DNA of 64,000 bases from Candidatus Pollutiaquabacter aromativorans (GTDB lineage: Bacteria > Bacteroidota > Bacteroidia > AKYH767-A > 2013-40CM-41-45): NCBI GenBank assembly GCA_049177215.1, contig CP185379.1:1192150-1256149 (forward strand). The letters run 5' to 3'. Below, piece after piece: positions 34,201-46,990 of the stretch. The notes below the pieces were generated by a model. The model saw nothing but the letters and a program-made list of their open reading frames with translations. It searched no databases and had not been told where the DNA came from. Every line of letters starts with the position of its first letter. The stretch's first letter is position 1. A program made the position numbers and the translations under genes.

Positions 34201-34311
34201 AAGCTGAAGGAAGAAGTGGTGGGCCGCGGTGTGCCGGATGCTTTCGTGGTAGCCTTCAGCGGCACGAAACGGATCCCCCTGGCCGAGGCCTTGCGGCAGG
34301 TAGGTCAATAA
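28255..34311 (+). CDS. giant (2018 aa) secreted protein: TPR, then PD40/TolB-like propeller, then about 1300 aa of low-complexity/coiled-coil, then three C-terminal SPOR (septal peptidoglycan-binding) domains
   Basis: Signal peptide. TPR (YRYGTALLLSGKDKRNAVSYLEKA...). PD40 repeats (YLSRDGQTIYYAS..., LDRDGKTLYFAS...GGYDIFKS). Long A/T/S/Q/E/P-rich and coiled-coil stretches. Three SPOR units (FKVQIGAFR...GFKDAFVVAY, YAVQVGVYR...IPDAFVVAY, FRVQVGAFR...VPDAFVVAF). The ORFs on the opposite strand and in other frames inside it look spurious. Confidence 0.8.
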   Translation: MYLRILFILTGLLLTQVVVSGQNQANSESELRKRADKLFQDQEYLTAVGPYSQLLSLQPNDATLNYRYGTALLLSGKDKRNAVSYLEKAMNDPAQPMEGWVYLGRSYMFLGKYEDAKSCFNRFNTRATDAQRKKFNSEEWLRSAGAASELSRQRRMVSVTAQKEVLRSAAYSQIDYTNAAGRILPVPEKFQTTADKDKQAAPVMYLSRDGQTIYYASYGKGSVGGKDLYLIRKMTNGEWAQPEHLGSVLNSVYNEDYPFLDRDGKTLYFASQGHNSIGGYDIFKSVFNFNTGQWSAPENLGIPLNTPDDDLLYVPGSDGVTAVYTTADFTDNTHTEIRTIHLDDQRNPFATIRGTYYSIDQPMRRDARVIVLRAADRSVVTTVRTDPRTGDYELVLPGGESYWLVIDGGGYVPHTESFDLPAGLEKAALRQEVRMNRNKQEELMTVTNFFTPMPSAIGADVIAVNDRPSSTETSATTPSSETVQISVGNETLIVSKPVSQPVTSPEQAGEVPVTADQAADEDTSLADNYNPLLDREMTQDEIRQRQEEQLRSEEVVADEKIPAEQLHVPVDEHELARSAVEDGVALQREADSLQDRSRELYASAANREEEAVRLLEEAQSIKEDTVRAANLYLQSDDMKQMALAEKQQARELDGLATERRAEAKQALTDAKALISSTNTKDKELSASVDRALAGTSEKASVTASSPSAAQGVTSPSLEPMAEQAVEVRTEGVSSTANPTSQTTPAAGQPQAADEEQLATTSPNQQEQNQTAATTSRVSPDSNDSGVVAVQQNVSEESQPTADFKRGHAAESSGKETGKPVVGTNPEGSSVSEKNTADVLAAGTNPAITASDEHAANDKQSVIEPETTVNATTKPEGLPEQKAQQSADERTVAIHQASEEQPKAEPNAMENRPKDQATSSGEPVVIAGQPTRESESRQQPTANQPSAGKSKDDKVAATTGTSQPTSSTAANATTIRSTDDAAQSVPVAVNADGAPVSPQTTQNTDRTRATTGTQTGSTDRSTSATRLTMVPAMEGVSEETRLAYQNYKQRMEFSSRLDERSKELQTQVATMKNSPERDSLIQLSNSMSMESIRQWQSAQQQLQLAKADDPEIQTKAETAIATAKAAEPAAEPVVTSQELATVANPVRRDAVPTGESAARTGVSGNQSANTNRADRSEQPAGTQPATSGQVSAIKTDVEETNQLSVTPTTPSVEPASGEARNDGQLASNVSGNQAADRVSNDGEGQRLEVSANNPNEPRPVSGGDVAPATSTGEISRNESRQGAISPSAEQGTTTARQDRSDATPAAGRGDEQAVATKPSTIPSGAERAGQVVANPDQTPGERPASAERSNPVSKEAAPTVSGQETVTNQSERQESVRSSETQESGGQRNSNAVQTATDRTRIADNTEPAVTPANAVSNTPTNTTTQAADNRNTVNEQQPGAMQQPAQPATSQVELVYDTASVRSKLQSNEDVPVAQLDSSHKDFPRYLKLRQEVGEKQDETIRLFSSAIELNKKASQEKEEQVDLMQKAEATADANEKAKLLRSAEKRKHDSEEHEAEAGKLMAQAQKLSDEIWENNQSLEALSLAIRKSGPARTSPATTPGTSGTTTTDIRPATIPEMDETVRAESSVSIQQTGNDRAPVKAGPLTVPGIERMVVRSDKPAYTDTAPIPVDQPLPEGLVFKVQIGAFRKPIPNEAFGGLSPVSGENTRPGWIRYCVGLFRTFEPANLVKKAMRGQGFKDAFVVAYFNGKRISLGEAYAMLNQAGSDSRATYASVSREELQRLKALNIVPQRTSAPDRDEQEFFGGTTSASADGFGTGTAYAVQVGVYRSSIPPAVLGSLQPLQQEALQRGLFRYTTGRYQVYASADSMRRVAVAAGIPDAFVVAYRDGRRVSLSNARRSETGTSGSTVVRPQPAASTPAAQPAVETGAITFRVQVGAFRQQVPFQVVDALLKVSDRGVEREQDPRGLQVFFAGRFSDYESARKLKEEVVGRGVPDAFVVAFSGTKRIPLAEALRQVGQ

Positions 34312-34352
34312 CCCGGAATTTCGTATCTTTACGCATCCGAAAGCAGGATGCC

Positions 34353-34643
34353 ATGATCCGTTTCCAGAACGAAGGCGAACTCGCCTTTGAAGAGCTAGTA
34401 GACAACAAGACCGAAGAAGTCCGGGTCCGCGATCTCGTGTTGTACAACGACGACGTGAACACCTTCGATTTCGTCATCCAGTGCCTCATCGAAGTCTGCA
34501 AGCACGACGCCTTGCAAGCCGAGCAATGCACCTATATCGTGCATTACAACGGTAAGTGTACCGTCAAGACCGGGTCCTACCTGCAACTGAATCCCATGCG
34601 TCAGGCTTTGCTCGACCGTGGACTTTCCGCCGTAATCGATTGA
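34353..34643 (+). CDS. clpS: ATP-dependent Clp protease adaptor ClpS
   Basis: VRDLVLYNDDVNTFDFVIQCLIEVCKHD is the ClpS core. 96 aa. Confidence 0.8.
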   Translation: MIRFQNEGELAFEELVDNKTEEVRVRDLVLYNDDVNTFDFVIQCLIEVCKHDALQAEQCTYIVHYNGKCTVKTGSYLQLNPMRQALLDRGLSAVID

Positions 34644-34707
34644 CGGTTTTTACACCAATTTCTTTTCCGGTACACCTTTTGATTACCGGTAGCCAAACTT
34701 CCCGACC

Positions 34708-35512
34708 ATGAGTTCCCGTTCCCTGTTCGCCGGCCTGGCGCTGGCCGTAGTGCTGGTTTCCTGTAGCAAAGTACCCATCACCAAGCGCAAGCAGATGAAC
34801 CTGCTGCCGGAATCCCAGTTGGTTTCCCTGAGCCTGACCAATTATCAGGACTTCCTCAAGCAAAACCCGCCGGTCAAGGGCACCGCCGATGCGGCCCTGG
34901 TGCAGCGGGTCGGAACGAAGGTGGCCGACGCGGTCATCAAGTTCATGAACCAAAACAAGATGGGCGACCGGATCAAAGGCTATCAGTGGGAATTCAACCT
35001 CGTGAACAGTCCGGATGTCAATGCCTGGTGCATGCCGGGAGGTAAGGTGGTCGTGTATGCAGGCCTGTTGCCCGTTACGCAGGATGAGACCAGCCTGGCC
35101 ATTGTCATGGGACACGAGATCGCCCATGCGGTGGCACGACACGGCAACGAGCGCATGAGCCAGATGATGGTAGCGCAAGGGGATGGGCATGGCCCTGGAT
35201 GTGGCCCTTTCCCAGCAGCCGGCCCAGACCCGCAACATGTTCCTCACGGCCTACGGCGCGGGTTCGACCCTCGGCATCCTGGCCTATTCGCGTACCCACG
35301 AAACCGAAGCCGACAAGCTCGGACTCATCTTCGCCGCCATGGCCGGGTATGATCCGCGCCTGTCGGTCGCCTTTTGGGAGCGCATGAGCGCCAAGAGCAG
35401 CGGCAACAAACCGCCCGAATGGATGAGTACCCACCCCAGCGACGCGACCCGCATCAGCAACCTCAAAGCCTTCATGCCCACGGCTTTGAAATATTACAAA
35501 ACCGGCTCCTGA
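34708..35512 (+). pseudogene. M48-family zinc metallopeptidase lipoprotein (HExxH...E), interrupted by an apparent +1 frameshift in a G4 run at about 35179-35182
   Basis: ORF 34708..35352 carries HEIAHAVARHG and then runs out of frame after ...MSQMMVAQG. ORF 35183..35512 in the +1 frame carries the rest, including the third Zn ligand in HETEADKLGL. Removing one G of GGGG restores a single about 267-aa M48 protein. Confidence 0.7.
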
Positions 35513-35514
35513 AG

Positions 35515-35544
35515 TTTGGAAATCTCAAAAAGTTCGTACTTTTG
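35515..35544 (+). promoter_or_regulatory. Bacteroidetes-type promoter for tRNA-Arg: -33 TTTG (35515-35518), 18-nt spacer, -7 TActTTTG (35537-35544)
   Basis: gaagTTTGgaaatctcaaaaagttcgTACTTTTGcagccccgtcaccgacgggg. The leader contains a 7-bp hairpin (ccccgtc/gacgggg) before the tRNA. Confidence 0.5.
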
Positions 35545-35585
35545 CAGCCCCGTCACCGACGGGCTTCCGAAAGGAAGACCTAGCA

Positions 35586-35659
35586 GGACCCGTAGCTCAA
35601 CTGGATAGAGCATCTGACTACGGATCAGAAGGTTAGGGGTTCGACTCCCTTCGGGTCCG
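35586..35659 (+). tRNA. tRNA-Arg (anticodon ACG)
   Basis: Acceptor ggacccg/cgggtcc, D-arm tagctcaactggatagagca, anticodon stem tctga/tcaga with loop ctACGga, T-arm ggggttcgactccct. Confidence 0.85.
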
Positions 35660-36164
35660 CTACTGACACAATAGACCCTTGATTATCAAGATGATAGTCG
35701 AGGGTTTTTTGTTGGTGGACGCCTGTGTGGGCACTCTTTTGCTTTGCTTGCCTTTTCCAAGAACCTCTCGAGGGCGGATTTGCTTGTGCACAGCTCGTTA
35801 AGCTTTTTCAAAGTACGAACGCTTACAAACTTCTTCTAAAATATTGGGGTGTTAAGAATGCCTGGGTCGGTAGTATTCCTTAAATGAAACTTTCATCTGG
35901 ATAATTTATATTAGCAAGGCAATCTTTATGGTCGCGCCCTTTTGCTTGACAGCAAAGGTTCCTACTCAGATGCGAAACCATTTAACGGCATTCGCAATTT
36001 TCGCCATTGTGTCATATTACAATGGAATCTAAATGTTGTTATGATATAGCAGCTGGATTGTTTTAAAAACAGTTTCCGAAGAAGGCTTCTGATAATATAA
36101 CTCGAACTTTCTGTTACCCCTGGATGATTAATTAGGTATTTCCCAACTTCTAAATAAACTAGCT

Positions 36165-37748
36165 ATGCGAGTCTTGCTCTTTCAATGGTTTTTACTAATT
36201 ACAATACAGATTATTAATGCCACTTCTTCGATTGCTCAGCAGCAACAGGGGATAGAGTGGGCCGTGTCTTATGGAGGAGCTAGCATTGACGTAGGAAACT
36301 CTATTCAACTTACCAGCGATGGTGGTTATGTTGCAATTGGAAAGAGTCGTTCAAGTGATGGTGACATCACTGTAAATCACGGCAGGGAAGATTACTGGGT
36401 TGTAAAGATCTCGAGCGATGGGAGTATTCAATGGCAAAAGTCTTTTGGCGGATCATCAGAGGATAATGGAAGATTCGTCCAGGGCACCTCAGATGGAGGA
36501 TACATTTTGATTGGATTTACAATGTCTAATGATGGCGACGTAATTGGAAATCATGGTGGTTATGATTGTTGGGTTGTAAAGCTGGATAGCATAGGGGATA
36601 TTGAATGGCAGAGAGCTTTAGGAGGATCGGGCATGGATGCCGGTGTATCAATTATTCAAACTTCCGATGGAGGTTATGCCATGATTTCTGTGTCAGATTC
36701 TAATGATGGAGATGTATACGGGAACAATGGCCAAACAGACTTTTGGGTTGTGAAACTTTCAGAATTAGGTAACATTGAATGGCAAAAATCTTTAGGGGGG
36801 AGTAGTTCTGAAACGGCATCCTCTATTCAACAAACTGCTGATGGGGGATACATTGTATCGGGTCAGAGTAGTTCCAATGATGGCGATGTTACTGGAAACC
36901 ACGGGGACTCTGATTTTTGGATAGTTAAATTGTCGAGTTTCGGAGATATACAATGGCAGAATTCGTACGGAGGGGCAGCTTATGATCATGGTCTGTCGAT
37001 TCAAGAAACTGCAGATGGAGGGTATATAACATGTGGTTTTGTTGAATCAAATAATGGTAACGTGACTTTTAATCACGGAAGTCGTGATGTTTGGGTACTT
37101 AAGTTATCTAATAATGGTGATTTGGAATGGGAAAAGTCATTTGGAGGCACTGGGGATGATTGGGGGCATGAAATTCAAATCACTTCTGATGGCGGATATG
37201 TGATTCTCGGACACAGTAATTCTAATGATGGAGATGTATTTAATATTCATGGATCAAGGGATTATTGGGCGATAAAGTTGTCTAATTTTGGTGTATTGGA
37301 GTGGCAAAAGACCTTAGGTGGTTCAGAATCTGACATAGGGCATTCTATTCGGCAAACCCTTGACGGTGGGTTTATCCTAATTGGTGAAAGTCAATCAAAT
37401 GATGGCGATGTGACTGGAAATCATGGTGCTTCCGACTATTGGATTGTAAAGTTAAATGCAACAATTGGGTTGTCCGAGTTTTCTGACTTTGAATGGACAA
37501 TTGTTTCCCCAAATCCAGTAACTAGTAGATTAACCATTAAAGTATCACTTACAAATTCTGAAGATCTTCAAGTTTATATACGGGACTTGCTTGGTCATGT
37601 AGTTTTAGAACCAATAAAATTGAATAATGTCAGCGGATTGGTTGAACAATCAATATCAACAACTATGCTTTCCGACGGAATGTACTTGCTTGATATTGTT
37701 GGGCTAAAATGGAGAAAAACTAAGCGAATAATCATAGTTCAAAGATGA
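36165..37748 (+). CDS. T9SS cargo protein with eight tandem ~48-aa SBBP-type beta-propeller repeats and a type-A C-terminal sorting domain
   Basis: Signal peptide. Repeat (I/L)EWQKS.GGS..D.G.SI.QTSDGGY...G.S.SNDGDV.GNHG..D.WVVKL occurs 8 times. C-terminal SPNPVTSRLTIKV...GMYLLDIVGLKWRKTKRIIIVQR. Confidence 0.7.
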   Translation: MRVLLFQWFLLITIQIINATSSIAQQQQGIEWAVSYGGASIDVGNSIQLTSDGGYVAIGKSRSSDGDITVNHGREDYWVVKISSDGSIQWQKSFGGSSEDNGRFVQGTSDGGYILIGFTMSNDGDVIGNHGGYDCWVVKLDSIGDIEWQRALGGSGMDAGVSIIQTSDGGYAMISVSDSNDGDVYGNNGQTDFWVVKLSELGNIEWQKSLGGSSSETASSIQQTADGGYIVSGQSSSNDGDVTGNHGDSDFWIVKLSSFGDIQWQNSYGGAAYDHGLSIQETADGGYITCGFVESNNGNVTFNHGSRDVWVLKLSNNGDLEWEKSFGGTGDDWGHEIQITSDGGYVILGHSNSNDGDVFNIHGSRDYWAIKLSNFGVLEWQKTLGGSESDIGHSIRQTLDGGFILIGESQSNDGDVTGNHGASDYWIVKLNATIGLSEFSDFEWTIVSPNPVTSRLTIKVSLTNSEDLQVYIRDLLGHVVLEPIKLNNVSGLVEQSISTTMLSDGMYLLDIVGLKWRKTKRIIIVQR

Positions 37749-37798
37749 TGACTGTCCATACTACTAAGCCCGAATTAAAATAGTTACTATAAGTTGCC

Positions 37799-39250
37799 AT
37801 GTTCGAACAAACCTTCAAAAACATCGACGACATCCTCCACAAAGACGCCGGTTGCGGTAGCGAACTGGACTATGTGGAACAGACTTCATGGGTGTTGTTT
37901 CTAAAATACCTGGATGACCTGGAGAAAGACCGCGCCACGGCTGCTGAACTGACGGGTAAGACGTACACGCCCATCATCGACAAAAAGTACCAGTGGTCGG
38001 TCTGGGCGGCGCCCAAGGGTAAGGATGGCAAACTGGACCACCACAAGGCGATGACCGGTGACGACCTGACCGACTTCGTGAACGGCAAGCTGTTTCCCTA
38101 CCTGAAAAAGTTCAAGACGGATGCGGACAGCGCGGATACCATCGAATACAAGATTGGCGAAATCTTCAGCGAACTGAAAAACCGCCTGCAAAGCGGATAT
38201 AACCTGCGGGAGGTCATCAACCTCATTGACGAGTTGCGTTTCCGTACCCACGCAGAGAAGCACGAAATGAGCCACCTCTACGAGGAGAAGATCAAGAACA
38301 TGGGCAACGCCGGGCGCAACGGCGGCGAGTACTACACGCCGCGCCCGCTCATCACCACCATCGTGAAGGTGATTGACCCGAAGATTGGCGAGAAGATCTA
38401 CGACGGCGCCTGCGGCTCGGCAGGCTTCCTGTGCGAAGCTTTTGCCTACCTCAACAAGAAAGGGCTGTCCAGCAAGGATACAGTGACTCTCCAGAAGAAG
38501 ACCTTCTATGGCAAGGAAAAGAAATCGCTGGCCTACATCATCGGCATCATGAACATGATCCTGCACGGTGTGGAAGCCCCCAACATCATACACACCAATA
38601 CACTGGCCGAAAACCTCGCGGACATACAGGAAAAAGACCGCTACGATGTGGTGCTTGCCAATCCGCCTTTTGGTGGAAAGGAGCGTGCCGAAGTGCAACA
38701 AAACTTCCCGATTAAAACAGGCGAAACCGCTTCGCTCTTTTTACAGCACTTCATTAAAATATTGAAAGCAGGTGGCAAGGCAGGTGTGGTTATTAAAAAC
38801 ACTTTTTTGAGTAATACCGATAACGCCTCTGTCGCCATCCGAAAGACCTTGTTGGAGAGTTGTAACCTTCATACGGTGCTGGATTTGCCAGGTGGCACGT
38901 TTACAGGAGCTGGTGTAAAAACGGTAGTGCTGTTTTTTGAAAAAGGTAAGCCCACAAAGAAGGTATGGTATTATCAGCTGAACCTTGACCGTAATTTAGG
39001 TAAGACCAACCCGCTCAATGAAAAAGACTTGGCGGACTTCGTGCAGCTCCAAAAATCCTTCAAGGATAGCGAGAACTCTTGGACGATAAACGTAAAGGAC
39101 ATCGACCAGAGCACGTTTGACTTGAGCGTGAAGAATCCGAATAAAAAGCAGGAAGTTGCCTTGCGTCAACCGCAAGAAATTTTAGAGGAGATGAAGGCGC
39201 TGGATGAAGAGAGTGCGGAAATCTTTAATTCAATATTGGAGCTGTTATGA
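37799..39250 (+). CDS. hsdM: Type I restriction-modification system, DNA methyltransferase subunit M
   Basis: HsdM N-terminal domain (WVLFLKYLDDLEK), SAM motif I (DGACGSAGFL) and catalytic NPPFGG (VLANPPFGGKE). 483 aa. Stop overlaps the hsdS start (ATGA). Confidence 0.9.
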   Translation: MFEQTFKNIDDILHKDAGCGSELDYVEQTSWVLFLKYLDDLEKDRATAAELTGKTYTPIIDKKYQWSVWAAPKGKDGKLDHHKAMTGDDLTDFVNGKLFPYLKKFKTDADSADTIEYKIGEIFSELKNRLQSGYNLREVINLIDELRFRTHAEKHEMSHLYEEKIKNMGNAGRNGGEYYTPRPLITTIVKVIDPKIGEKIYDGACGSAGFLCEAFAYLNKKGLSSKDTVTLQKKTFYGKEKKSLAYIIGIMNMILHGVEAPNIIHTNTLAENLADIQEKDRYDVVLANPPFGGKERAEVQQNFPIKTGETASLFLQHFIKILKAGGKAGVVIKNTFLSNTDNASVAIRKTLLESCNLHTVLDLPGGTFTGAGVKTVVLFFEKGKPTKKVWYYQLNLDRNLGKTNPLNEKDLADFVQLQKSFKDSENSWTINVKDIDQSTFDLSVKNPNKKQEVALRQPQEILEEMKALDEESAEIFNSILELL

Positions 39251-39732
39251 AGCAGGGTTGGGAAATAAAGAAGTTGGGAGAGATTGTTGATATTGTTAAT
39301 GGAAGGAATCAATCTTCAGTGCTCTCTGAAAATGGACCATATCCTATTTACGGAAGTGCTGGTAATTTGATGGGCTATTCAACGGAGTATTTGTGTGATA
39401 AAGGCACCACTATAATCGGAAGAAAGGGGAATATCTCTACCCCAATCTTCATTGATGAAAGATTTTGGAACGTAGATACTGCCTTTGGATTATTCCCCAA
39501 AAATGGAAGCATCCCCAAGTTTATTTATTATTTATGTCTTACCATTGATTTCAAAAGTCGAAACAGGGGTACAACTATTCCGAGTTTAGTCAAATCAGAC
39601 TTATTGACCATTGATGTCCCATTTGTTAAGTCCCTCCCCGAACAACAACGCATTGTTTCCATATTAGACGAGTGCTTTGCCGCCATAGCCAAGGCAAAAG
39701 CCAATGCCGAAGAAGAACCTCAAAAACGCTAA
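39247..39732 (+). CDS. hsdS: Type I R-M specificity subunit S, N-terminal target-recognition-domain half (ends in the central conserved region)
   Basis: MKQGWEIKKLGEIVDIVNG... is a typical HsdS start. It ends ...ILDECFAAIAKAKANAEEEPQKR* inside the central conserved spacer. Confidence 0.75.
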   Translation: MKQGWEIKKLGEIVDIVNGRNQSSVLSENGPYPIYGSAGNLMGYSTEYLCDKGTTIIGRKGNISTPIFIDERFWNVDTAFGLFPKNGSIPKFIYYLCLTIDFKSRNRGTTIPSLVKSDLLTIDVPFVKSLPEQQRIVSILDECFAAIAKAKANAEEEPQKR

Positions 39733-40348
39733 GGAACTTTTTGAGAGTTATTTGCAGGGGGTGTTTGAGAATGGGGATTGGGACACGAAAACCATTGAAC
39801 TGGTATGTGATGAAATATTTGCAGGTGGTGATGCGCCCCAAAACAATTTTTCATTGGAGTCCAATAAAAAACATAATATTCCTATATACGCAAATGCTGT
39901 AAAAGATAGAGGTCTGTACGGCTATACTGACTTTGCAAGAGTTAACAAGCCTTGTGTGACAATAGCAGCAAGGGGGAGTGGTACAGGGCACACGGAATTA
40001 AGGAATGAACCATTTTTGCCTATTGTAAGGCTCATTGTATGTATTCCAAACTGCAAAATAATCACAGCCGAATTCCTCAAATACACGATAGATAATTTAG
40101 TGATTCAGCGCAGCGGTAGTGCGATTCCACAACTAACTGTTCCGATGATAAAGGACTATATTATACCAGTTCCACTTATTGAAGAGCAAAAACAGATTAT
40201 TGAAAAGGCAGAAGCACTTAAAGAACAAAAAGCAAGACTCGAAAATGTATATCAAAAGAAGTTGGAAGACTTGGAGGAGTTGAAGAAGGCCATCCTTCAA
40301 AAGGCATTTGCTGGGGAGTTGAAAACAGGAAAACCGGTTGCGGCATGA
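39704..40348 (+). CDS. hsdS: Type I R-M specificity subunit S, C-terminal target-recognition-domain half (different frame, overlaps previous ORF by 29 nt)
   Basis: Continues the conserved central/C-terminal regions (NLKNAKELFESYLQ ... EEQKQIIEKAEALKEQKARLENVYQKKLEDLEELKKAILQKAF). Together the two ORFs make a normal two-TRD HsdS. Confidence 0.7.
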   Translation: MPKKNLKNAKELFESYLQGVFENGDWDTKTIELVCDEIFAGGDAPQNNFSLESNKKHNIPIYANAVKDRGLYGYTDFARVNKPCVTIAARGSGTGHTELRNEPFLPIVRLIVCIPNCKIITAEFLKYTIDNLVIQRSGSAIPQLTVPMIKDYIIPVPLIEEQKQIIEKAEALKEQKARLENVYQKKLEDLEELKKAILQKAFAGELKTGKPVAA

Positions 40349-41235
40349 GTTGGAACGAAAAAAGCATGTTAAATGAGCCATCCGGAGAATGGGGTGGTCC
40401 CTGGACTGAAAAAAAGCTTGAAGCTTTTTCAAAATATGTGTGGTCTTACCTAACCATTATGAAGAAGTTCCCTTTTTGGAAAACCATCTACTTTGATGGC
40501 TTTGCGGGAAGCGGAACAAGGGATAAGCGGGCGAATGCTCATTTGATGCAACAACTAAAAATCACAGACGAAGAAGAAGAAACTTATAAAGGTGCTGCCG
40601 AAAGGGTTTTAGGTTTGCAAGAATTGGGGTTTGACTTTTACTATTTTATTGACAAAAACGACACTTCGCTGAATAAATTGAAAACAAAACTGGGTGATAG
40701 ATTTAAAGATAAAACGATTGTTTACCGGTCAGGAGATGCGAACGTTCAAATAGCCGAGCTTGCAAAAGCCTTGCGAACCAAAGATTACGCAGCATTGGTT
40801 TTTCTTGACCCTTTCGGCATGCAAATAGATTGGAATTCCATAGAAGAATTAAAAGATACACGTTCTGATGTATGGATTTTAGTTCCAACGGGCGTTATTG
40901 TAAATCGTCTATTGGACAGAGCAGGAAAATTGGAGTTTAGCGATAAACTCCAATCATTTTTCGGCTTGCCAATTGAAGAAATCAAAACACATTTCTACGA
41001 AGAAAAAAAAGTGCAGACACTTTTCGGAGTAGAAGAAATCATCACAAAGGTTTCTCGACCTATTGAGAAAATTTCAAGTTTGTATGCCGAACGAATGAAA
41101 ACTATCTGGAAGCACGTTACGGATGAACCACTAGTATTGAAGAACCGAAACGGCTCACCTATATTTCATTTCGTATTTGCATCAAATAATCAGAATGCAA
41201 AAAAGATTGCTAAACAAATTATTCATAACATTTAA
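40345..41235 (+). CDS. TcmP-like (three-Cys-motif partner protein) family protein; unknown function
   Basis: 296 aa. N-terminal W..KKLEAF.KYV..Y, glycine-rich YFDGFAGSG and VFLDPFG motifs as remembered for the TcmP family (TIGR04474). Start overlaps the hsdS stop by 4 nt and it is followed 3 nt later by a Gp37/Gp68 gene. Family assignment is from memory, not a search. Confidence 0.55.
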   Translation: MSWNEKSMLNEPSGEWGGPWTEKKLEAFSKYVWSYLTIMKKFPFWKTIYFDGFAGSGTRDKRANAHLMQQLKITDEEEETYKGAAERVLGLQELGFDFYYFIDKNDTSLNKLKTKLGDRFKDKTIVYRSGDANVQIAELAKALRTKDYAALVFLDPFGMQIDWNSIEELKDTRSDVWILVPTGVIVNRLLDRAGKLEFSDKLQSFFGLPIEEIKTHFYEEKKVQTLFGVEEIITKVSRPIEKISSLYAERMKTIWKHVTDEPLVLKNRNGSPIFHFVFASNNQNAKKIAKQIIHNI

Positions 41236-41238
41236 CCT

Positions 41239-41964
41239 ATGGCACAATCAAGTATAGAATGGACTGAAATGACTTGGAATCCAACAACGGGTTGCGATAA
41301 AATTTCGGCAGGTTGCAAATTCTGTTATGCGGAAGTAATGGCAAGGCGATTAAAAGCAATGGGCGTTGAAAAATATGCCAATGGCTTTGAGTTGGCTATT
41401 CACGAAGATGAATTGCAAACACCTTACACTTGGAAAAAATCGAAAATGGTATTTGTAAATTCAATGAGCGACTTATTTCATAAAGACGTGCCCGTTGAAT
41501 TTATTCAAAAGGTATTCAGAGTAATGAAAGAAAATCCGCAACACGTTTTTCAAATTTTGACCAAACGGGCTGATTTGCTTTTATATTATGATAAAGAAGG
41601 ATTGTTGGAATGGGCGCACAACATCTGGATGGGTGTTTCGGTAGAAAGCGAAAAAGTGATGAACCGGATTGACCTTTTGCGTCAAACCAATGCAAGAGTA
41701 AAATTTTTAAGTTGCGAGCCGTTAATAAGCCCTCTGCCAAATTTGAATTTAAAAGGCATTGATTGGGTAATAGTAGGCGGTGAAAGCGGAAGAACGCCAA
41801 GACCCATGAAAAAGGAATGGGTAATGGAAATTAAAGAACAATGTAGGAAAAAAGATGTAGCGTTTTTCTTTAAGCAATGGGGCGGAACGAACAAAAAGAA
41901 AACAGGCAATCTGCTTAACGGCAAAAAATATTTAGAAATGCCAGAAATAGTTGAATCGAAATGA
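41239..41964 (+). CDS. phage protein Gp37/Gp68 family (DUF5131), three-Cys-motif radical-SAM-like protein
   Basis: IEWTEMTWNPTTGCDKISAGCKFCYAE carries the family-defining N-terminal Cys triad (C-x6-C-x2-C). 241 aa. Stop overlaps the hsdR start (ATGA). Confidence 0.75.
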   Translation: MAQSSIEWTEMTWNPTTGCDKISAGCKFCYAEVMARRLKAMGVEKYANGFELAIHEDELQTPYTWKKSKMVFVNSMSDLFHKDVPVEFIQKVFRVMKENPQHVFQILTKRADLLLYYDKEGLLEWAHNIWMGVSVESEKVMNRIDLLRQTNARVKFLSCEPLISPLPNLNLKGIDWVIVGGESGRTPRPMKKEWVMEIKEQCRKKDVAFFFKQWGGTNKKKTGNLLNGKKYLEMPEIVESK

Positions 41965-44312
41965 ACGAGGCAGAAACACGCGCTGAACTAATCGACCCCA
42001 AGCTCAAGGCTTGCGGCTGGGGCGTGGTGGAAGGCTCCAAAATCCTGCGAGAGTATAAAATCACCGCGGGGAGGATTCAGGCTGGCGGAAGAGGCAAGCG
42101 TGATATTGCAGATTATGTGCTGGTCTATAAAGGCATCAAGCTGGCGGTAGTGGAAGCGAAAAGCGCTTCGGTGGAAGTGGGTGAGGGTGTGATGCAAGCC
42201 AAGAAGTACGCGGAGAAACTGCAAACCGGCACCACGTACAGCACCAACGGGAAGGAAATCTACCAGATTTGCATGGAGACCGGCGCTGAGGGCTTGGTGC
42301 CGGAGTTCCTCAGCCCCGACCAGCTATGGAACAAGACTTTTTCGCCGGCCGGTGCCGAACCGATAGCTACCGCCCAATGGCGCGAGCGATTCACCAATGT
42401 TCCTTTTGAAGACAAAGGAGGCAGCTGGCAGCTTCGCTACTATCAGGAAATCGCCGTGCAACGCGCCATTGAGGCCATTGCACAAAACAAAAACCGAATC
42501 CTGCTCACCCTTGCCACGGGAACAGGCAAAACGGCTATCGCCTTCCAAATCGCCTGGAAGCTATACCAAACCCGCTGGAACCTGAGACGGGATGGCAGCC
42601 GCAGACCGCGCATCCTGTTCCTGGCCGACCGCAACATCCTCGCCGATCAGGCCTACAACGCCTTTTCGGCGTTTCCGGAAGATGCGCTGGTGCGCATTAA
42701 GCCGAATGAGATTAGGAAAAAGGGCAAAGTGCCGACCAATGGCAGCGTCTTCTTCACCATCTTCCAGACCTTCATGAGCGGGCAGGATGCAGCGGGTAAG
42801 CCCACCCCATATTTCGGAGAGTACCCACCGGACTACTTCGATTTCATCATCATTGACGAGTGCCACCGCGGCGGAGCAAACGATGAAAGCAACTGGCGCG
42901 GGATTCTGGAGTATTTCAGTCCGGCGGTACAGTTGGGTCTGACCGCAACCCCCAAGCGACAGGACAACGTGGATACGTATGCTTACTTCGGCGAACCGGT
43001 GTACGTGTATTCGCTCAAAGAGGGCATCAACGACGGCTTCCTCACCCCGTTCAAAGTAAAACGCATCCAGACGACCCTCGACGACTACCGCTATACGTCC
43101 GACGATACCGTGGTAGAGGGCGAAATCGAGGAGGGTAAATTGTACGAGGAGAAGGACTTCAACCGCACCATTGAGATCGTGGAACGGGAGGCCAAGCGGG
43201 TGAATGTGTTTCTTTCAGAGGCAAACCAACACGAAAAAGCAATAATCTTCTGTGCTAACCAAGGGCACGCCGCCTTGATACGGGATTTAGTAAATCAGCA
43301 CGCTAAGCACAAAGACCCCTTTTACTGCGTACGAGTGACTGCCAATGACGGGGAGGAAGGGGAGCGCCTGCTGCGGGAGTTTCAGGACAATGAAAAGACG
43401 TTGCCGACGATTCTGACCACCTCGCAAAAACTCTCCACCGGGGTTGATGCACGGAACATTCGAAACATCGTCCTGCTGCGCCCCGTCAACTCGATGATCG
43501 AGTTCAAGCAAATCGTCGGCCGGGGTACCCGCCTGTTCGATGGGAAGGAGTTTTTCACCATCTACGATTTTGTCGATGCCTACCGCCACTTTTCCGATCC
43601 CGAATGGGATGGGGAACCGGAGGGCGAAGTGGACAAGGTCGTCAGCGATCACGGTCAAGAGAAATACGATCCAAGAGCTCCCCGTGAGCCTGAGGAAGCA
43701 GGAGATCCCAAGGAACCTCGGCGGAAAGTAAAGGTTAAGCTACGAGACGGTAAAGCGCGGGAGATACAGCACATGGTGTCCACCTCGTTTTGGAGTGCGG
43801 ACGGAAGGCCGATCTCTGCACAAGAATTCCTGAGCAATCTGTTCGGAGAACTGCCGAAACTTTTCAAAGACGAAGAGGAACTGCGAAAGCTGTGGAGCAA
43901 TCCATTGACCCGCCGTACGCTGCTTGAAAAGCTGGAAGAGGCCGGTTTCCCCAAGGCAGACCTGCTCACCTTGCAGCAGTTGGTCGATATGGAAAAGAGC
44001 GACCTGTATGATGTGTTGGAATATGTTTTCAATGGCGACTATATCGCCATGACAAGAGAAGCCAGAGCCAAAGCAGCCGAAGCGACCATTTTTGCCCTGC
44101 TCAACGACAAGCAAAAGGAGTTCATTGCATTTGTGCTCAGTAAATACATTGAAACCGGCGTGGATGAGCTTGACCAGGATAAGCTGCCTATCCTGTTGAC
44201 GAACAAATATCAGTCACTGGAAGACGCTAAAGCGGTCTTGGGGGATGTGGCGAATATCAGTCGGTTGTTTGTGGAGTTTCAGGAGCATCTTTATAAGCAG
44301 CGGGTTGCGTAA
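41961..44312 (+). CDS. hsdR: Type I restriction enzyme R subunit (EcoEI-like, 783 aa)
   Basis: HsdR_N PD-(D/E)xK domain (DIADYVLVYKGIKLAVVEAK), SF2 helicase motifs (LATGTGKT, DECHRG, later motifs) and an EcoEI-R-type C-terminal domain. Confidence 0.9.
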   Translation: MNEAETRAELIDPKLKACGWGVVEGSKILREYKITAGRIQAGGRGKRDIADYVLVYKGIKLAVVEAKSASVEVGEGVMQAKKYAEKLQTGTTYSTNGKEIYQICMETGAEGLVPEFLSPDQLWNKTFSPAGAEPIATAQWRERFTNVPFEDKGGSWQLRYYQEIAVQRAIEAIAQNKNRILLTLATGTGKTAIAFQIAWKLYQTRWNLRRDGSRRPRILFLADRNILADQAYNAFSAFPEDALVRIKPNEIRKKGKVPTNGSVFFTIFQTFMSGQDAAGKPTPYFGEYPPDYFDFIIIDECHRGGANDESNWRGILEYFSPAVQLGLTATPKRQDNVDTYAYFGEPVYVYSLKEGINDGFLTPFKVKRIQTTLDDYRYTSDDTVVEGEIEEGKLYEEKDFNRTIEIVEREAKRVNVFLSEANQHEKAIIFCANQGHAALIRDLVNQHAKHKDPFYCVRVTANDGEEGERLLREFQDNEKTLPTILTTSQKLSTGVDARNIRNIVLLRPVNSMIEFKQIVGRGTRLFDGKEFFTIYDFVDAYRHFSDPEWDGEPEGEVDKVVSDHGQEKYDPRAPREPEEAGDPKEPRRKVKVKLRDGKAREIQHMVSTSFWSADGRPISAQEFLSNLFGELPKLFKDEEELRKLWSNPLTRRTLLEKLEEAGFPKADLLTLQQLVDMEKSDLYDVLEYVFNGDYIAMTREARAKAAEATIFALLNDKQKEFIAFVLSKYIETGVDELDQDKLPILLTNKYQSLEDAKAVLGDVANISRLFVEFQEHLYKQRVA

Positions 44313-44362
44313 TTAGGTAATTAAAATTCTCAGTTATTTAACCATATTGCTCAGTCTGGCTA

Positions 44363-45118
44363 ATGAAAAATCTTACAGTAAGTAGTTTCGACGAAATAAT
44401 TAATATATTGACTAACGATAAATATGGTTGTGGCCATGTTGTTTATCGTGGAGTTTCTGATTCTAAGAAACATGACTTAAGACCGTCTGTTGGAAGGATA
44501 GATCCCTCATTGTTAAAGGGCAAAGATCTTCAAGAGTTGGAGCGTGAGATGCTAACCCGTTTTAAATTGAGAGCAAACTTTGAAATTAGTCCGCAACCTA
44601 AGGATGATTGGGAGTGGTTGGCTTTAGCTCAACATCACGGCCTGCCAACAAGACTTCTTGACTGGACATTTAGTCCATTAATTGCAATCTACTTTGCATG
44701 TAAACCCATTCTCAATGACAATGGTTTATTTGATAGTTCTAACAGTGACGCAAGAGCTGTTTACGCACTACATACATGTTCGTACCTAGACACCAGTTGC
44801 TTAGATCCATTTTCAGTTAGTGAATGCTGCTTATTTTACCCCCCTCACATCACAAAGCGTATATCTGGTCAGTTTGGTCTATTCTCTGTTCAGCCAGACC
44901 CCATGACAGCATTCGATTCTCAGTTAGAGGAGTCGGATGAAAACTGGGTAGATAAGATTGAAATTCCACTGGACCTAGCTATTGAAGCTCAAAAGAAGCT
45001 GTTTCTTTTGGGAATAAGGCATGAAACTATTTTTCCAGATTTGGAAGGCTACACATATGACCTAAGAGTAAAGTTCAATATTGCTTCATGTCATACTTTG
45101 AAAAATCTTTGCTTGTAG
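44363..45118 (+). CDS. FRG-domain protein
   Basis: VVYRGVSDSKKHDLRPSVGR and WEWLALAQHHGLPTRLLDWTFSPLIAIYFA match the FRG-domain signature. 251 aa. Confidence 0.65.
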   Translation: MKNLTVSSFDEIINILTNDKYGCGHVVYRGVSDSKKHDLRPSVGRIDPSLLKGKDLQELEREMLTRFKLRANFEISPQPKDDWEWLALAQHHGLPTRLLDWTFSPLIAIYFACKPILNDNGLFDSSNSDARAVYALHTCSYLDTSCLDPFSVSECCLFYPPHITKRISGQFGLFSVQPDPMTAFDSQLEESDENWVDKIEIPLDLAIEAQKKLFLLGIRHETIFPDLEGYTYDLRVKFNIASCHTLKNLCL

Positions 45119-45277
45119 TGTCCTTTTAAAGGCCCAATTGGTTCTCCGACATGATGAATTTCACAAATGGGCGCAGCAGATTCTAATTTAACTCGGTGAA
45201 TTGGCAGGAAAATATTTGGGCTAAACTCTTTGGGTATTTATAAAAACTATATATTAGTCATCAAACCTAACGTCTTT

Positions 45278-46990
45278 ATGAAAACTAAAGTTCTACTTTC
45301 CTTGCTGATTTGTATCAGCATCTCGGTGTCGGCATTATCTCAAGCAACCCCCTCTTATGTGCCAACCAACGGATTGGTCGGCTGGTGGCCTTTTAATGGG
45401 AATGCAGATGATGCGAGTGGGAATGGGAATAACGGGACATTTTCTAACGGCAGTTATGTGCCTAGTATATGGGACATGGCCGCTGAATTTAATGGTAATA
45501 GTTCACTGATAACTATACCAAGCAGCAGTAGCTTTGATACTGATTCATTTACCTTTTCTTTAAGAGTGAATTTGTCTTCACACTTAGGGCACAATGAAAT
45601 TCAGTTTGGTATTCCAGGTGATTCGCTGAGATGGTCTATTGGTTGGGATCCTAATCAGTTATATCTATTACCGATGACCTGTGCAGGAACTTATGGGACA
45701 GGGCAAAATTATCCTCAAGTACCTATAAATGTCGGAACCTGGTATCATATGGTGTTTGTTAATCATGGAATTTATACTGATTATTATTTGGATGGGGTGT
45801 TTTTGGGAACATCCGATATGACAACCCCTTTGAATTGTTGGAGCCCCAGTATGAACCTATACCTGGGCGGAGACATTGGCGGGGGGGCCATCGAGTATTT
45901 TGCTGGTCTAATGGATGAATGCGGATTTTGGAACCGTGCCCTCACCCAACAGGAAATCACAAATCTTTATAATGCCACAACTTCTCCTCCTTGCAACCCG
46001 CTGCCAATTAATTTAATGAATGGACTTGTGGGCTACTGGCCTTTTTGTGGGAATGCGAATGATGAGTCAGGTAATGGAAACAATGGAACCGTAAATGGAG
46101 CAACCATGGCGGCTGATAGGTTTAGCAATGCAGGTAATGCGTTTTCATGGAACACTTCTCCGGATAAAATAGTGGTGCCTAATAGCAATAGCCTACAACT
46201 TACTTCAGCTTTCTCGGTTGGTCTCTGGTTGAAGCCAATTAATAATACTTACGGAACCGGCCCCAATTATCATGCAATAGTAGAGAAGTGGGGGGCAGCT
46301 AACGACGCATCTTATCTATTTGAGCTATTTACTAATGGTATCCCAGCATTCCGAACTCATAATTCTGGAAGTGATGCGGTGATTCAAGCAAGACAAGCGG
46401 TTCCTTTTGATGTTTGGACACACCTTCTTTATACTCAAAATGCAGATACCGGGAGACTATATGTGAATGGCCTTTTGGATACTGTTGTAATGGGAATGAT
46501 AACCCCCATGGTTATGAATAATGACCTGCTATTTGGAAGTAATGATGCTTACAATGTTGGTTCTTCCGGGGATGCATACGAAGGATTAATAGATGATATC
46601 GGTATTTGGAATCGGGTGCTCAGCCAGTCTGAAGTCAACCAAGTATATAACCAAAATATCTGCTTTCAAACCATCACCGTTACCGACACCCTGCTTATCA
46701 ATGTAAATATAACTAACCTGAATCCGGTCACTTATCAGAATACAATCAAGGTCTTCCCGAATCCGACCAATGACCATATCACGGTCGACTTCGGGCCGAA
46801 CTACGCGTCGTTGACGGGTTACAGCTTGCGCATCGACAACACCCTTGGACAGACGATGTTTACCTCCCCTGTGCAGCAGCAATCTGCCTATATCGACCTA
46901 AACACCTGGACAGGTGTGGGGGTCTATTTTGTCTATCTACTGGACGCTCAGGGCCATACCGTGGATGTGAGGAAAATTGTATTGCAGTAG
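45278..46990 (+). CDS. T9SS cargo protein with two LamG/concanavalin-A-like lectin domains and a type-A C-terminal sorting domain
   Basis: Signal peptide MKTKVLLSLLICISISVSALSQA. Duplicated LVGWWPFNGNADDASGNGNNGT / LVGYWPFCGNANDESGNGNNGT LamG hallmarks. C-terminal IKVFPNPTNDHITVDF...GVYFVYLLDAQGHTVDVRKIVLQ. Confidence 0.7.
   Translation: MKTKVLLSLLICISISVSALSQATPSYVPTNGLVGWWPFNGNADDASGNGNNGTFSNGSYVPSIWDMAAEFNGNSSLITIPSSSSFDTDSFTFSLRVNLSSHLGHNEIQFGIPGDSLRWSIGWDPNQLYLLPMTCAGTYGTGQNYPQVPINVGTWYHMVFVNHGIYTDYYLDGVFLGTSDMTTPLNCWSPSMNLYLGGDIGGGAIEYFAGLMDECGFWNRALTQQEITNLYNATTSPPCNPLPINLMNGLVGYWPFCGNANDESGNGNNGTVNGATMAADRFSNAGNAFSWNTSPDKIVVPNSNSLQLTSAFSVGLWLKPINNTYGTGPNYHAIVEKWGAANDASYLFELFTNGIPAFRTHNSGSDAVIQARQAVPFDVWTHLLYTQNADTGRLYVNGLLDTVVMGMITPMVMNNDLLFGSNDAYNVGSSGDAYEGLIDDIGIWNRVLSQSEVNQVYNQNICFQTITVTDTLLINVNITNLNPVTYQNTIKVFPNPTNDHITVDFGPNYASLTGYSLRIDNTLGQTMFTSPVQQQSAYIDLNTWTGVGVYFVYLLDAQGHTVDVRKIVLQ

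Follow-up and report, generated by a model that had tools for sequence, protein, structure and literature searches.

We examined a 64,000-nucleotide (nt) stretch of contig CP185379.1 (positions 1,192,150 to 1,256,149) of Candidatus Pollutiaquabacter aromativorans, a member of the Bacteroidota. This stretch is referred to below as the window, and all coordinates are given in its numbering. Judged by its protein domains, the locus under study is an operon of a type I restriction–modification (R-M) system of the EcoAI family (type IB), with the gene order hsdM-hsdS-[TcmP-DUF5131]-hsdR; its genes, like the secreted repeat protein, FRG and LamG genes described below, lie on the forward strand. The gene hsdM (37799–39250) encodes the N6-adenine methyltransferase subunit (N6_Mtase PF02384, 220 bits; HsdM_N PF12161, 41 bits; PADLOC MTase_I, 546 bits). 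The restriction subunit of the EcoAI type is encoded by hsdR (41961–44312); it matches NF046051 over its full length (1–779) with 797.1 bits against a cut-off of 550, contains EcoEI_R_C (87 bits) and ResIII domains, and is 100% identical to XQP85246.1 of NCBI. Two further genes are found between hsdS and hsdR. The first (40345–41235) encodes TcmP, a three-Cys-motif partner protein (TIGR04474, 143 bits; PDC-M41A in PADLOC), and the second (41239–41964) a DUF5131 or 'phage Gp37/Gp68' protein (PF07505, 325 bits; PDC-M41B/M30B).

The hsdS gene is present in the window as two open reading frames (ORFs) split by a 1-nt insertion, so the interior, which had earlier been taken for three genes, contains four ORFs. 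The N-terminal half (39247–39732; Methylase_S, 84 bits) includes the first target recognition domain (TRD1) and the beginning of the central conserved region, and the C-terminal half (39704–40348; Methylase_S, 62 bits) includes the rest of the central region, TRD2 and the C-terminal conserved region. Both TRDs are therefore still encoded, Methylase_S being matched twice. Overlaps of the ATGA type join hsdM to hsdS (39247–39250), hsdS to TcmP (40345–40348) and DUF5131 to hsdR (41961–41964), while TcmP and DUF5131, on the same strand, are separated by 3 nt; overlapping stop and start codons, described earlier for all junctions, were thus present at three of the four. Since they occur on both sides of the two additional genes, they argue for co-expression and translational coupling of TcmP-DUF5131 with the R-M subunits. 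The locus shares with the EcoAI/EcoEI type IB systems the HsdR equivalog score, the EcoEI_R_C domain, the HsdM_N and N6_Mtase domains and an HsdS in which conserved regions separate two TRDs. It differs from them in the two unrelated, translationally coupled genes embedded in it and in the frameshifted hsdS.

In sliding windows of 400 nt, the GC content is 0.52–0.57 over 42.0–44.0 kb (hsdR) and 0.50–0.56 over 37.8–38.8 kb (the 5′ two-thirds of hsdM), whereas it is 0.35–0.43 over 39.2–41.8 kb (hsdS-TcmP-DUF5131), and the change at the DUF5131/hsdR junction is abrupt. The contrast arises mainly at third codon positions. The GC content at these positions (GC3) was 0.67 for hsdM, 0.38 for each half of hsdS, 0.35 for TcmP, 0.36 for DUF5131 and 0.66 for hsdR. 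When pooled, 329 of 906 third positions in the block (0.36) and 842 of 1268 in hsdM and hsdR (0.66) were G or C (χ2 = 191, p = 1.6e-43). Thirty backbone genes of the window served as the host reference (GC3 0.64 ± 0.057); relative to them, hsdM and hsdR have z scores of +0.5 and +0.3, and the four block ORFs of −4.6 to −5.1. Correlations of relative synonymous codon usage (RSCU) with the pooled host were 0.71 for hsdM and 0.77 for hsdR (host genes, 0.77 ± 0.09), against −0.16 to −0.43 for the block ORFs. A reading made from the DNA alone (the sequence-only reading) had described hsdM and hsdR as GC-richer than the genes between them, and both the sliding GC and the codon usage bear this out, hsdM and hsdR being host-typical. 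For hsdM the description is correct overall, but the gene is internally uneven: GC3 is 0.75–0.95 at 37.9–38.6 kb, dips to 0.45–0.52 at 38.62–38.98 kb and then returns to 0.65–0.70.

It should be noted that the genes on the outer sides of hsdM and hsdR are as AT-rich as the block: GC3 is 0.31 in the secreted repeat protein gene upstream, and 0.33 and 0.42 in the FRG and LamG genes downstream. The whole operon is enclosed in an AT-rich island of about 11 kb (35661–46700; GC about 0.40 against 0.54 for the backbone), within which hsdM and hsdR are the only host-like blocks. Its left edge is formed by a tRNA-Arg(ACG) gene (35586–35660, forward strand) predicted by ARAGORN, directly 3′ of which GC falls from about 0.55 to 0.36–0.44. 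Atypical composition adjoining a tRNA gene is one mark of a tRNA-linked integrative island. As for the other marks, no integrase was found among the island ORFs and no att-like direct repeat at the island boundaries.

The relatives of the operon were collected in two ways. Loci carrying TcmP were found by a metagenome scan (L081–L093) and by exact-protein look-ups (L094, L097–L102). A scan with HsdR, in which one genome per species was kept, gave 80 HsdR-anchored loci belonging to Bacteroidota, TM6, phyla of the candidate phyla radiation, Chloroflexota, Proteobacteria and Methanosarcinales.

L081, located on a 219-kb contig with about 40% GC, was the locus most closely related to the window in the interior. 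Amino acid (aa) identity to L081 varies strongly along the operon, being 91% for HsdM, 31% for TRD1, 83% for TRD2, 90% for TcmP, 95% for DUF5131 and 78% for HsdR. At the nt level (300-nt segments) the identity is 79–85% in TRD2, 85–86% in TcmP and 88–94% in DUF5131; across the hsdR start it is 78%, it drops below 75% within about 100 nt, and after that L081 is no longer among the best matches. Pairwise high-scoring segments start at 39634, in the hsdS central conserved region, and resume exactly with the first codon of TcmP; L081 has an extra PDDEXK_3 gene between hsdS and TcmP. The central conserved region (39630–39790), which forms the left end of the L081-like block and is a likely crossover anchor, shows 89–93% nt identity to many loci of different hosts. 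In the comparison with L081, the stretch from this region through TRD2, TcmP and DUF5131 (39.63–41.96 kb) is the co-inherited unit.

The proposal that the two extra genes travel with hsdS holds, accordingly, for the half of hsdS made up of the central region and TRD2. It fails for TRD1, the best relative of which anywhere is 57% identical (L024, aa) and which does not exceed 41% over the TRD in any locus carrying the TcmP-DUF5131 pair. Nor is the pair tied to hsdS as a whole. In L082, L094, L097 and L099 it is well conserved (TcmP 79–91%, DUF5131 87–94% aa) next to unrelated TRDs (33–42% aa), while L006 and L028 have related TRD2 domains (76% and 67% aa) and other cargo.

Synonymous divergence (dS, NG86) separates the parts of the operon further. 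Relative to L081 it is 0.51 in DUF5131, 0.85 in TcmP and 1.39 in TRD2, and it is saturated in hsdR and in hsdM outside one 300-nt tract (0.52). For hsdR it is saturated against all relatives, with no internal patchwork. A second relative, L082, shares 86–88% aa with the window in HsdR (its own HsdR GC3 is 0.36) and 88–93% in TcmP-DUF5131, and has unrelated TRDs. When the window, L081 and L082 are compared as a triplet, the cassette (the hsdS-TcmP-DUF5131 interior) sides with L081 at 149 sites against 58, whereas hsdR sides with L082 at 184 sites against 96. This incongruence is highly significant (Fisher p = 1.4e-16), and three other triplets gave p ≤ 1e-14; the ancestry of the operon is mosaic. 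Among the informative sites of hsdR and hsdM, those at which L081 and L082 agree and the window is the odd one out are the most frequent (384 and 140 sites, respectively), which places the frame genes of the window on a long branch, while in the cassette the window nests with L081 rather than as an outgroup. We infer that the interior is younger and has a history distinct from that of hsdR and most of hsdM. The nearest HsdM proteins come from AT-rich L081 and L015 (90–91%) and the nearest HsdR from AT-rich L082 (86–88%), the GC-rich loci L046 and L063 being more distant in both. None of the sampled GC-rich relatives was thus the source of the high GC3 of the frame genes.

Throughout the 80 loci hsdM and hsdR are conserved (72–90% and 66–83% aa identity, respectively), whereas the TRDs of hsdS are mostly about 30% identical and the gene content between hsdM and hsdR varies widely. 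In about a dozen loci hsdS directly adjoins hsdR. In the remaining loci, one or more additional genes are present in the hsdS–hsdR interval, in the hsdM–hsdS interval or in both. These include genes for Old (719 bits), AbiD, SoFic, PrrC-like AAA_13/PDC-S06 and Schlafen AlbA_2 proteins, PD-(D/E)XK proteins of the GxxExxY type (PDDEXK_3), Bro-N/PDC-S13, RhuM-like PDC-S05, RmrA-type proteins, IS200-type transposases and PDC-M30. DUF5131 with a partner fills the slot in five of the 80 loci, the partner being of the PDC-M30A type in four and TcmP in one. The positions between hsdM, hsdS and hsdR are a slot for interchangeable defence cargo.

The compositional contrast is also a property of the family. 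In all 50 loci that hold both genes, the DNA separating hsdM from hsdR has a lower GC content than either gene, with a mean deficit of 6.5–6.7 GC points and a maximum of 15–16. When GC3 is regressed on that of the flanking ORFs, hsdM (slope 0.86, r 0.86) and hsdR (slope 0.84, r 0.85) follow the host closely, while hsdS (slope 0.32, r 0.74) and the other interior genes, or cargo (slope 0.44, r 0.62), follow it weakly. In all loci the GC3 of hsdS stays within 0.18–0.42, and it does not exceed 0.42 even at a host value of 0.71; this is the case of L046, with 0.80 for hsdM, 0.77 for hsdR and 0.37 for hsdS. Furthermore, hsdS is AT-richer than the flanking host ORFs in 83% of loci, AT-rich hosts included (mean −0.10). 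The window, with a host GC3 of 0.63–0.64, lies near the regression lines for hsdM, hsdR and hsdS, and its cargo (0.36) is somewhat under the value of about 0.44 expected from the cargo line. For a GC-rich host, a contrast as large as that in the window is in keeping with the prediction of the family rule.

In several AT-rich hosts (L013, L020, L025, L001 and others) the GC3 of hsdM and hsdR is 0.51–0.54 against 0.35–0.37 for the flanking ORFs, and the frame genes of these loci look like GC-richer newcomers. Over the family, hsdM exceeds its flanks in 82% of loci (mean +0.066). GC-biased gene conversion was considered as a source of GC-rich frames and set aside: the mean difference between hsdR and its flanks is +0.012 and not significant, and the excess of hsdM is only 0.066.

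To the population level belong five conspecific contigs (L103–L107), assembled independently from five samples (JGI, ENA and three Logan runs), which were reached through two further members of the HsdR 90% cluster. In all of them the island is found with unchanged gene order and with both flanks, at 97–99% nt identity to the window. No single-nucleotide polymorphisms (SNPs) separate the window from these contigs at 31.9–34.2 kb or in the secreted repeat protein gene; there are one or two in the LamG gene and none in the FRG gene of four of the five. The SNPs are instead clustered in eight short patches of the operon (38.1–38.9, 39.5–39.9, 40.3–40.5, 40.7–40.9, 41.1–41.5, 41.9–42.1, 42.5–43.1 and 43.9–44.1 kb). 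In hsdM, 21 of the 28 strain-level SNPs fall within 38.5–38.9 kb. One contig has a third allele of hsdR (L107:1442–3793, corresponding to 41961–44312 of the window), with 122–135 SNPs (5.2% divergence) over 42.1–44.3 kb. This allele contains compensating indels at 42338–42350; hsdR of the other four contigs is 27 SNPs from that of the window. Recombination in the operon is thus continuing, in short patches.

One of these patches can be connected with the composition of hsdM. At codons 250–350 (38549–38848) the fraction of codons identical to those of L081, L082, L015, L002 and L020 is 0.65–0.80, compared with 0.3–0.5 elsewhere in the gene. The nt identity is 89–91% and dS is 0.46–0.68, whereas the rest of hsdM is saturated. 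In this tract and in the hsdS central region the window allele is 5–6 points nearer to foreign members of the family than the sister allele is. We regard 38549–38848 as a gene-conversion tract. It coincides with the GC3 dip of hsdM, and since the tract is the one highly identical to AT-rich relatives, import from the AT-rich pool leaves a compositional scar of exactly this kind.

The insertion that splits hsdS lies at about 39707–39716, in the central conserved region, where the window has GAAGAAGAAC and five relatives have GAACAA-AAC. In the five conspecific contigs, which do not have the extra base, hsdS is one intact ORF of 366 aa. There are two alternatives for the frameshift: hsdS was inactivated or split in this strain only, or the extra base is an indel error in the assembly of the metagenome-assembled genome (MAG). 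In another locus of the family (L098:5494–8004) hsdS is broken by an insertion sequence with an rve_3 transposase on the opposite strand, and hsdS of the matching locus L099 is intact.

We consider it likely, with a probability of roughly 0.7, that the operon consists of scaffold genes equilibrated to the host and a younger AT-rich interior exchanged at conserved junctions. In this reading hsdM and hsdR would be a slowly evolving scaffold, the synonymous sites of which have come to equilibrium with the host or with a lineage of similar composition. The interior would be a later replacement, in which homologous recombination brought in an allele of the same operon family from an AT-rich pool. 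This exchange would cover the stretch from the hsdS central conserved region through TRD2 and TcmP to the end of DUF5131, with crossovers in family-conserved sequence, on the left in the hsdS central region and on the right where the DUF5131 stop meets the hsdR start. TRD1 would have been exchanged in a separate event. The same process would act throughout the family, and short conversion tracts are still being imported within the species. The order of events, with old frames and a younger cassette, is what the dS and triplet comparisons suggest.

Several observations weigh against this reading. The island flanks are as AT-rich as the cassette, so that the simple scheme of a foreign insert in a resident frame has to be supplemented by further events; of the earlier proposal of a cassette replaced inside a resident frame, the part that stands is that the interior is younger and incongruent with hsdR. 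Comparison with related loci, which had been put forward as a check on the variability of the cassette, gave variable gene content in the 80 loci but invariant content in the five conspecific contigs, where only short patches differ and no swap was caught. The closest relative of the cassette is itself old (dS about 0.5), so that 'recent' applies only relative to hsdR, and a recent donor of the cassette was not found among the sampled loci. The dS of TcmP is also saturated against L082, and the age contrast rests mainly on the comparisons with L081 and L097. Finally, polarised synonymous changes on the window branch number 5 AT>GC against 9 GC>AT in DUF5131 and 15 against 6 in TcmP. The absence of a clear GC drift, at these few sites, fits a late arrival of the cassette and equally selection that keeps it AT-rich.

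In a rival explanation the direction is reversed. The whole AT-rich island would then have arrived with a complete AT-rich operon, for instance on an integrative element, and hsdM and hsdR would later have been overwritten, through homologous recombination or gene conversion, by alleles from a lineage of host-like composition, so that the cassette would have belonged to the island from the start and the frames would be the later arrivals. A vehicle of this type is seen in L094, where hsdM-hsdS-TcmP-DUF5131-hsdR-FRG lies on an AT-rich element that contains an excisionase-like HTH_17 protein, a VapE-like protein and a tyrosine integrase and adjoins mnmE, a GC-richer host gene. The hsdM (0.49) and hsdR (0.43) of this operon are shifted hostwards in GC3 relative to their neighbours (0.24–0.33). 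In the window, all island genes except hsdM and hsdR are AT-rich, the island abuts a tRNA-Arg gene, and short conversion tracts demonstrably enter hsdM and hsdR. What such an overwriting requires is a GC-rich donor, and none was seen, the nearest HsdM and HsdR being those of AT-rich loci; nor does the window contain a second type IB locus from which the frames could have been converted. Moreover, hsdR behaves as a long-branch outgroup with saturated dS throughout, which is a better fit to divergence in place than to recent import. We consider the reversed order improbable.

Slightly less probable again, in our estimate, is that the parts of the operon do not differ in history at all. According to this explanation, hsdS and the genes embedded beside it are intrinsically AT-rich in every host through selection or relaxed constraint, for which weak codon selection in poorly expressed or fast-evolving genes, AT-biased mutation or a regulatory or silencing need for AT-rich DNA could be named, and the jump in composition would carry no information on exchange. 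The narrow GC3 band of hsdS, its position below the flanking ORFs in 83% of loci and the lack of a clear GC drift on the window branch of the cassette are all as expected under it. Accessory DNA is commonly AT-rich, and accessory genes are generally AT-richer than core genes. However, a gap of 30 GC3 points is far above the usual expression-linked effects. The heterogeneity of dS, the incongruence of the triplets (p = 1e-16) and the shuffling of modules show separate histories, and the AT dip of hsdM is exactly the tract of high synonymous identity to AT-rich relatives. As for an assembly chimera, in which reads of an AT-rich and a GC-rich organism were joined at the conserved hsdM and hsdR, the source is indeed a MAG and both genes are conserved across taxa, but it would need six switches exactly at gene boundaries with reading frames preserved, and it is rejected because five contigs from five samples repeat the gene order and composition at 97–99% identity.

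The two cargo genes deserve separate consideration. In PADLOC, TcmP matches PDC-M41A (PDLC04636) with 364 bits, and DUF5131 matches PDC-M41B (PDLC04639) with 421 bits and PDC-M30B with 423 bits; the adjacent A and B genes thus have the PDC-M41 architecture. The TIGR04474 score of TcmP (142.8 bits) is well above the cut-off of 53, and a PF07505 protein follows immediately downstream, as is expected of this family. The pairing is kept in every related TcmP locus whose DNA reaches past TcmP. Among TcmP homologues with at least 70% aa identity and available flanks, the pair is always inside a type I operon and nearly always directly 3′ of hsdS, and HsdR is of the EcoEI_R_C type in the operons of TcmP homologues wherever the domains were read. 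The order hsdR-TcmP-DUF5131-hsdS-x-hsdM, with hsdR in two ORFs, is found in L101 and L102 (5217–12732). Here too the pair is flanked by hsdR and hsdS, and the start codon of TcmP overlaps the stop codon before it. A more distant pair (L091, 59% identical) has no R-M genes within about 7 kb downstream and 1 kb upstream, and a serine recombinase gene is located nearby.

The pair itself is probably mosaic. In L066 and L083–L085, TcmP is 79–80% identical to that of the window but DUF5131 only 53–55% (aa), compared with 79% and 92% in L087, and this difference between the two genes points to recombination within the pair. The DUF5131 lineage that is about 53–55% identical to that of the window has two alternative upstream partners: a TcmP of 296 aa in L066 and L083–L085, and a PDC-M30A protein of 373 aa with a C-terminal GMT-like winged helix-turn-helix domain in L006, L011, L033 and L040. 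The A component of the pair appears to be exchangeable.

TcmP has no Pfam match. Its AlphaFold2 model has a mean confidence (pLDDT) of 71.8, and in Foldseek all significant PDB matches are class I S-adenosylmethionine (SAM) methyltransferases (EgtD, RlmJ, KsgA and others), with E values of 7e-6 to 1e-3 and TM-scores of only 0.30–0.38. A class I SAM-methyltransferase fold is predicted for TcmP from this model. In 33 homologues the motifs F50-D-G-F-x-G-S-G57 and L154-D-P-F-G158 are invariant. We note a resemblance of FDGFxGSG to methyltransferase motif I and of LDPFG to a DPPY-like motif IV, which is a lead and not a test of the function. In DUF5131, the residues C19, C26 and C29 are invariant in 28 homologues (C19-x6-C26-x2-C29). 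The protein scores 91 bits against TIGR04471 (radical SAM mobile pair protein A), under the cut-off of 355. Since the canonical CxxxCxxC motif is absent and the spacing is non-canonical, we do not class DUF5131 as a radical SAM enzyme. Its structural model is poor (pLDDT 61.5) and gave only generic TIM-barrel fold matches. Searches of PDB sequences with TcmP and DUF5131, as single sequences and as profiles, gave nothing meaningful, and the literature on TcmP, DUF5131, PF07505, PDC-M41, PDC-M30 and PDC-S15 contained annotation-level mentions only.

Our guess is that TcmP-DUF5131 is an accessory module for defence or nucleic-acid modification that works alongside the type I enzyme or is guarded by it. 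A broader reading, which we put forward tentatively and think doubtful, joins two statements: that the pair, with its methyltransferase-fold protein and its three-Cys, radical-SAM-like protein, is a dedicated partner of EcoAI-type systems rather than passive cargo and, separately, that the AT-rich hsdS and cargo, whose GC3 depends little on the host (slopes 0.32–0.44 against 0.85 for hsdM and hsdR), form a cross-phylum pool that recombines into host-adapted hsdM/hsdR anchors. As a dedicated partner, the pair might install a second, unconventional nucleic-acid modification, or it might be a back-up effector sensing the state of the R-M complex.

Shuffling of TRDs at the conserved regions of hsdS is textbook knowledge. 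The window resembles such cases in that the relatives of TRD1 and TRD2 are independent of each other and the central region marks the left breakpoint; it differs in that the exchanged segment does not end after TRD2 but takes in both cargo genes and reaches as far as the hsdR start codon. Reports on Xylella fastidiosa (10.1101/2022.09.01.506293) and Staphylococcus aureus (PMC3753647) are examples of this type of shuffling.

Genes embedded in type I operons are likewise well established, and the route described here is an ordinary one for the evolution of such operons. The PDC set was compiled from genes that lie within BREX, DISARM and type I R-M loci, 'guilt-by-embedding' being the discovery method, and all 145 PDC systems are listed by the authors as untested candidates (Payne et al., bioRxiv 10.1101/2024.01.29.577857). 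In having adjacent A and B genes embedded in a type I operon, the window shows no architectural difference from PDC-M41/PDC-M30, and among related loci M41A and M30A alternate as the A partner of DUF5131 lineages. The type IC R-M locus EcoprrI harbours an embedded anticodon nuclease, PrrC (PMC12707154). As there, the window has accessory genes within the hsd operon, and PrrC-like AAA_13 genes occupy the same slot in related loci; unlike there, the cargo consists of a protein with a predicted methyltransferase fold and a three-Cys, TIM-barrel-like protein rather than an ABC-ATPase nuclease. A guard of the PrrC type is an ABC-ATPase/anticodon-nuclease effector held by the type I enzyme and activated on its inhibition; neither TcmP nor DUF5131 matches PrrC/AAA_13 profiles. 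The two genes of TgvAB, located in the five-gene type I operon of Vibrio cholerae VPI-2, provide independent and complementary defence (PMC11411939). This two-gene module inside a five-gene operon has the same layout as the window, but TgvAB is a GmrSD-like type IV restriction system, to which TcmP-DUF5131 is unrelated. A passage of the same paper cites rlo genes (RloF) in hsd loci of Campylobacter jejuni.

The locus leaves the understanding of R-M systems and defence islands unchanged. What it adds is a quantitative picture of one cross-phylum type IB family, a defined unit of exchange (half of hsdS and two cargo genes) and evidence, at the level of the population, that patchy conversion is going on. 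It can serve as a worked example of type I R-M diversification, in which the scaffold takes on the host composition while half-specificity domains and cargo are swapped at conserved junctions, and this diversification is visible from the cross-phylum comparison down to SNP patches within a species. In this family, the GC3 of the hsd interior is 10–30 points lower than that of hsdM and hsdR; such a contrast points to exchangeable cargo and could aid in finding embedded defence genes. The TcmP-DUF5131 pair (PDC-M41), being abundant and tied to EcoAI-type operons, is a reasonable candidate for experiment.

Directly 3′ of hsdR lies an AT-rich gene for an FRG-domain protein (44363–45118; PF08867, 92 bits), a PADLOC candidate PDC-S15 (224 bits). 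In L094 an FRG gene (L094:14213–15001) occupies the same post-hsdR position, although the identity between the two proteins is only 27%. The site 3′ of hsdR may constitute another slot for cargo.

Two of the remaining neighbours encode proteins with a sorting domain of the type IX secretion system (T9SS). Upstream of hsdM, a gene at 36165–37748 encodes a secreted repeat protein with a C-terminal T9SS sorting domain (Pfam Por_Secre_tail); it contains tandem repeats of 174 nt (58 aa) at 36300–37460, which are 60–70% identical to each other. Farther upstream, a hairpin followed by a T-run (35673–35707) is located after the tRNA-Arg gene; this is the sole exception in the search for promoters and terminators, the counts of which did not otherwise exceed the expectation from shuffled sequence. 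Before the tRNA gene, a SNP-dense tract of the backbone (34300–35600) covers genes for ClpS and an M48 peptidase. Its divergence is 10.8% from L103 and about 1–3% from L104, and the adjoining 31.9–34.2 kb are free of SNPs; it looks like another imported recombination tract. At the right side of the island, the gene at 45230–46990 encodes a LamG-domain T9SS cargo protein (Laminin_G_3 and Por_Secre_tail). The 3′ end of this gene (46680–46990), which encodes the T9SS sorting domain, has a host-like GC3 of 0.65–0.80 in 46.68–46.92 kb, and this suggests that the LamG gene is also mosaic or that the island boundary lies inside its ORF.

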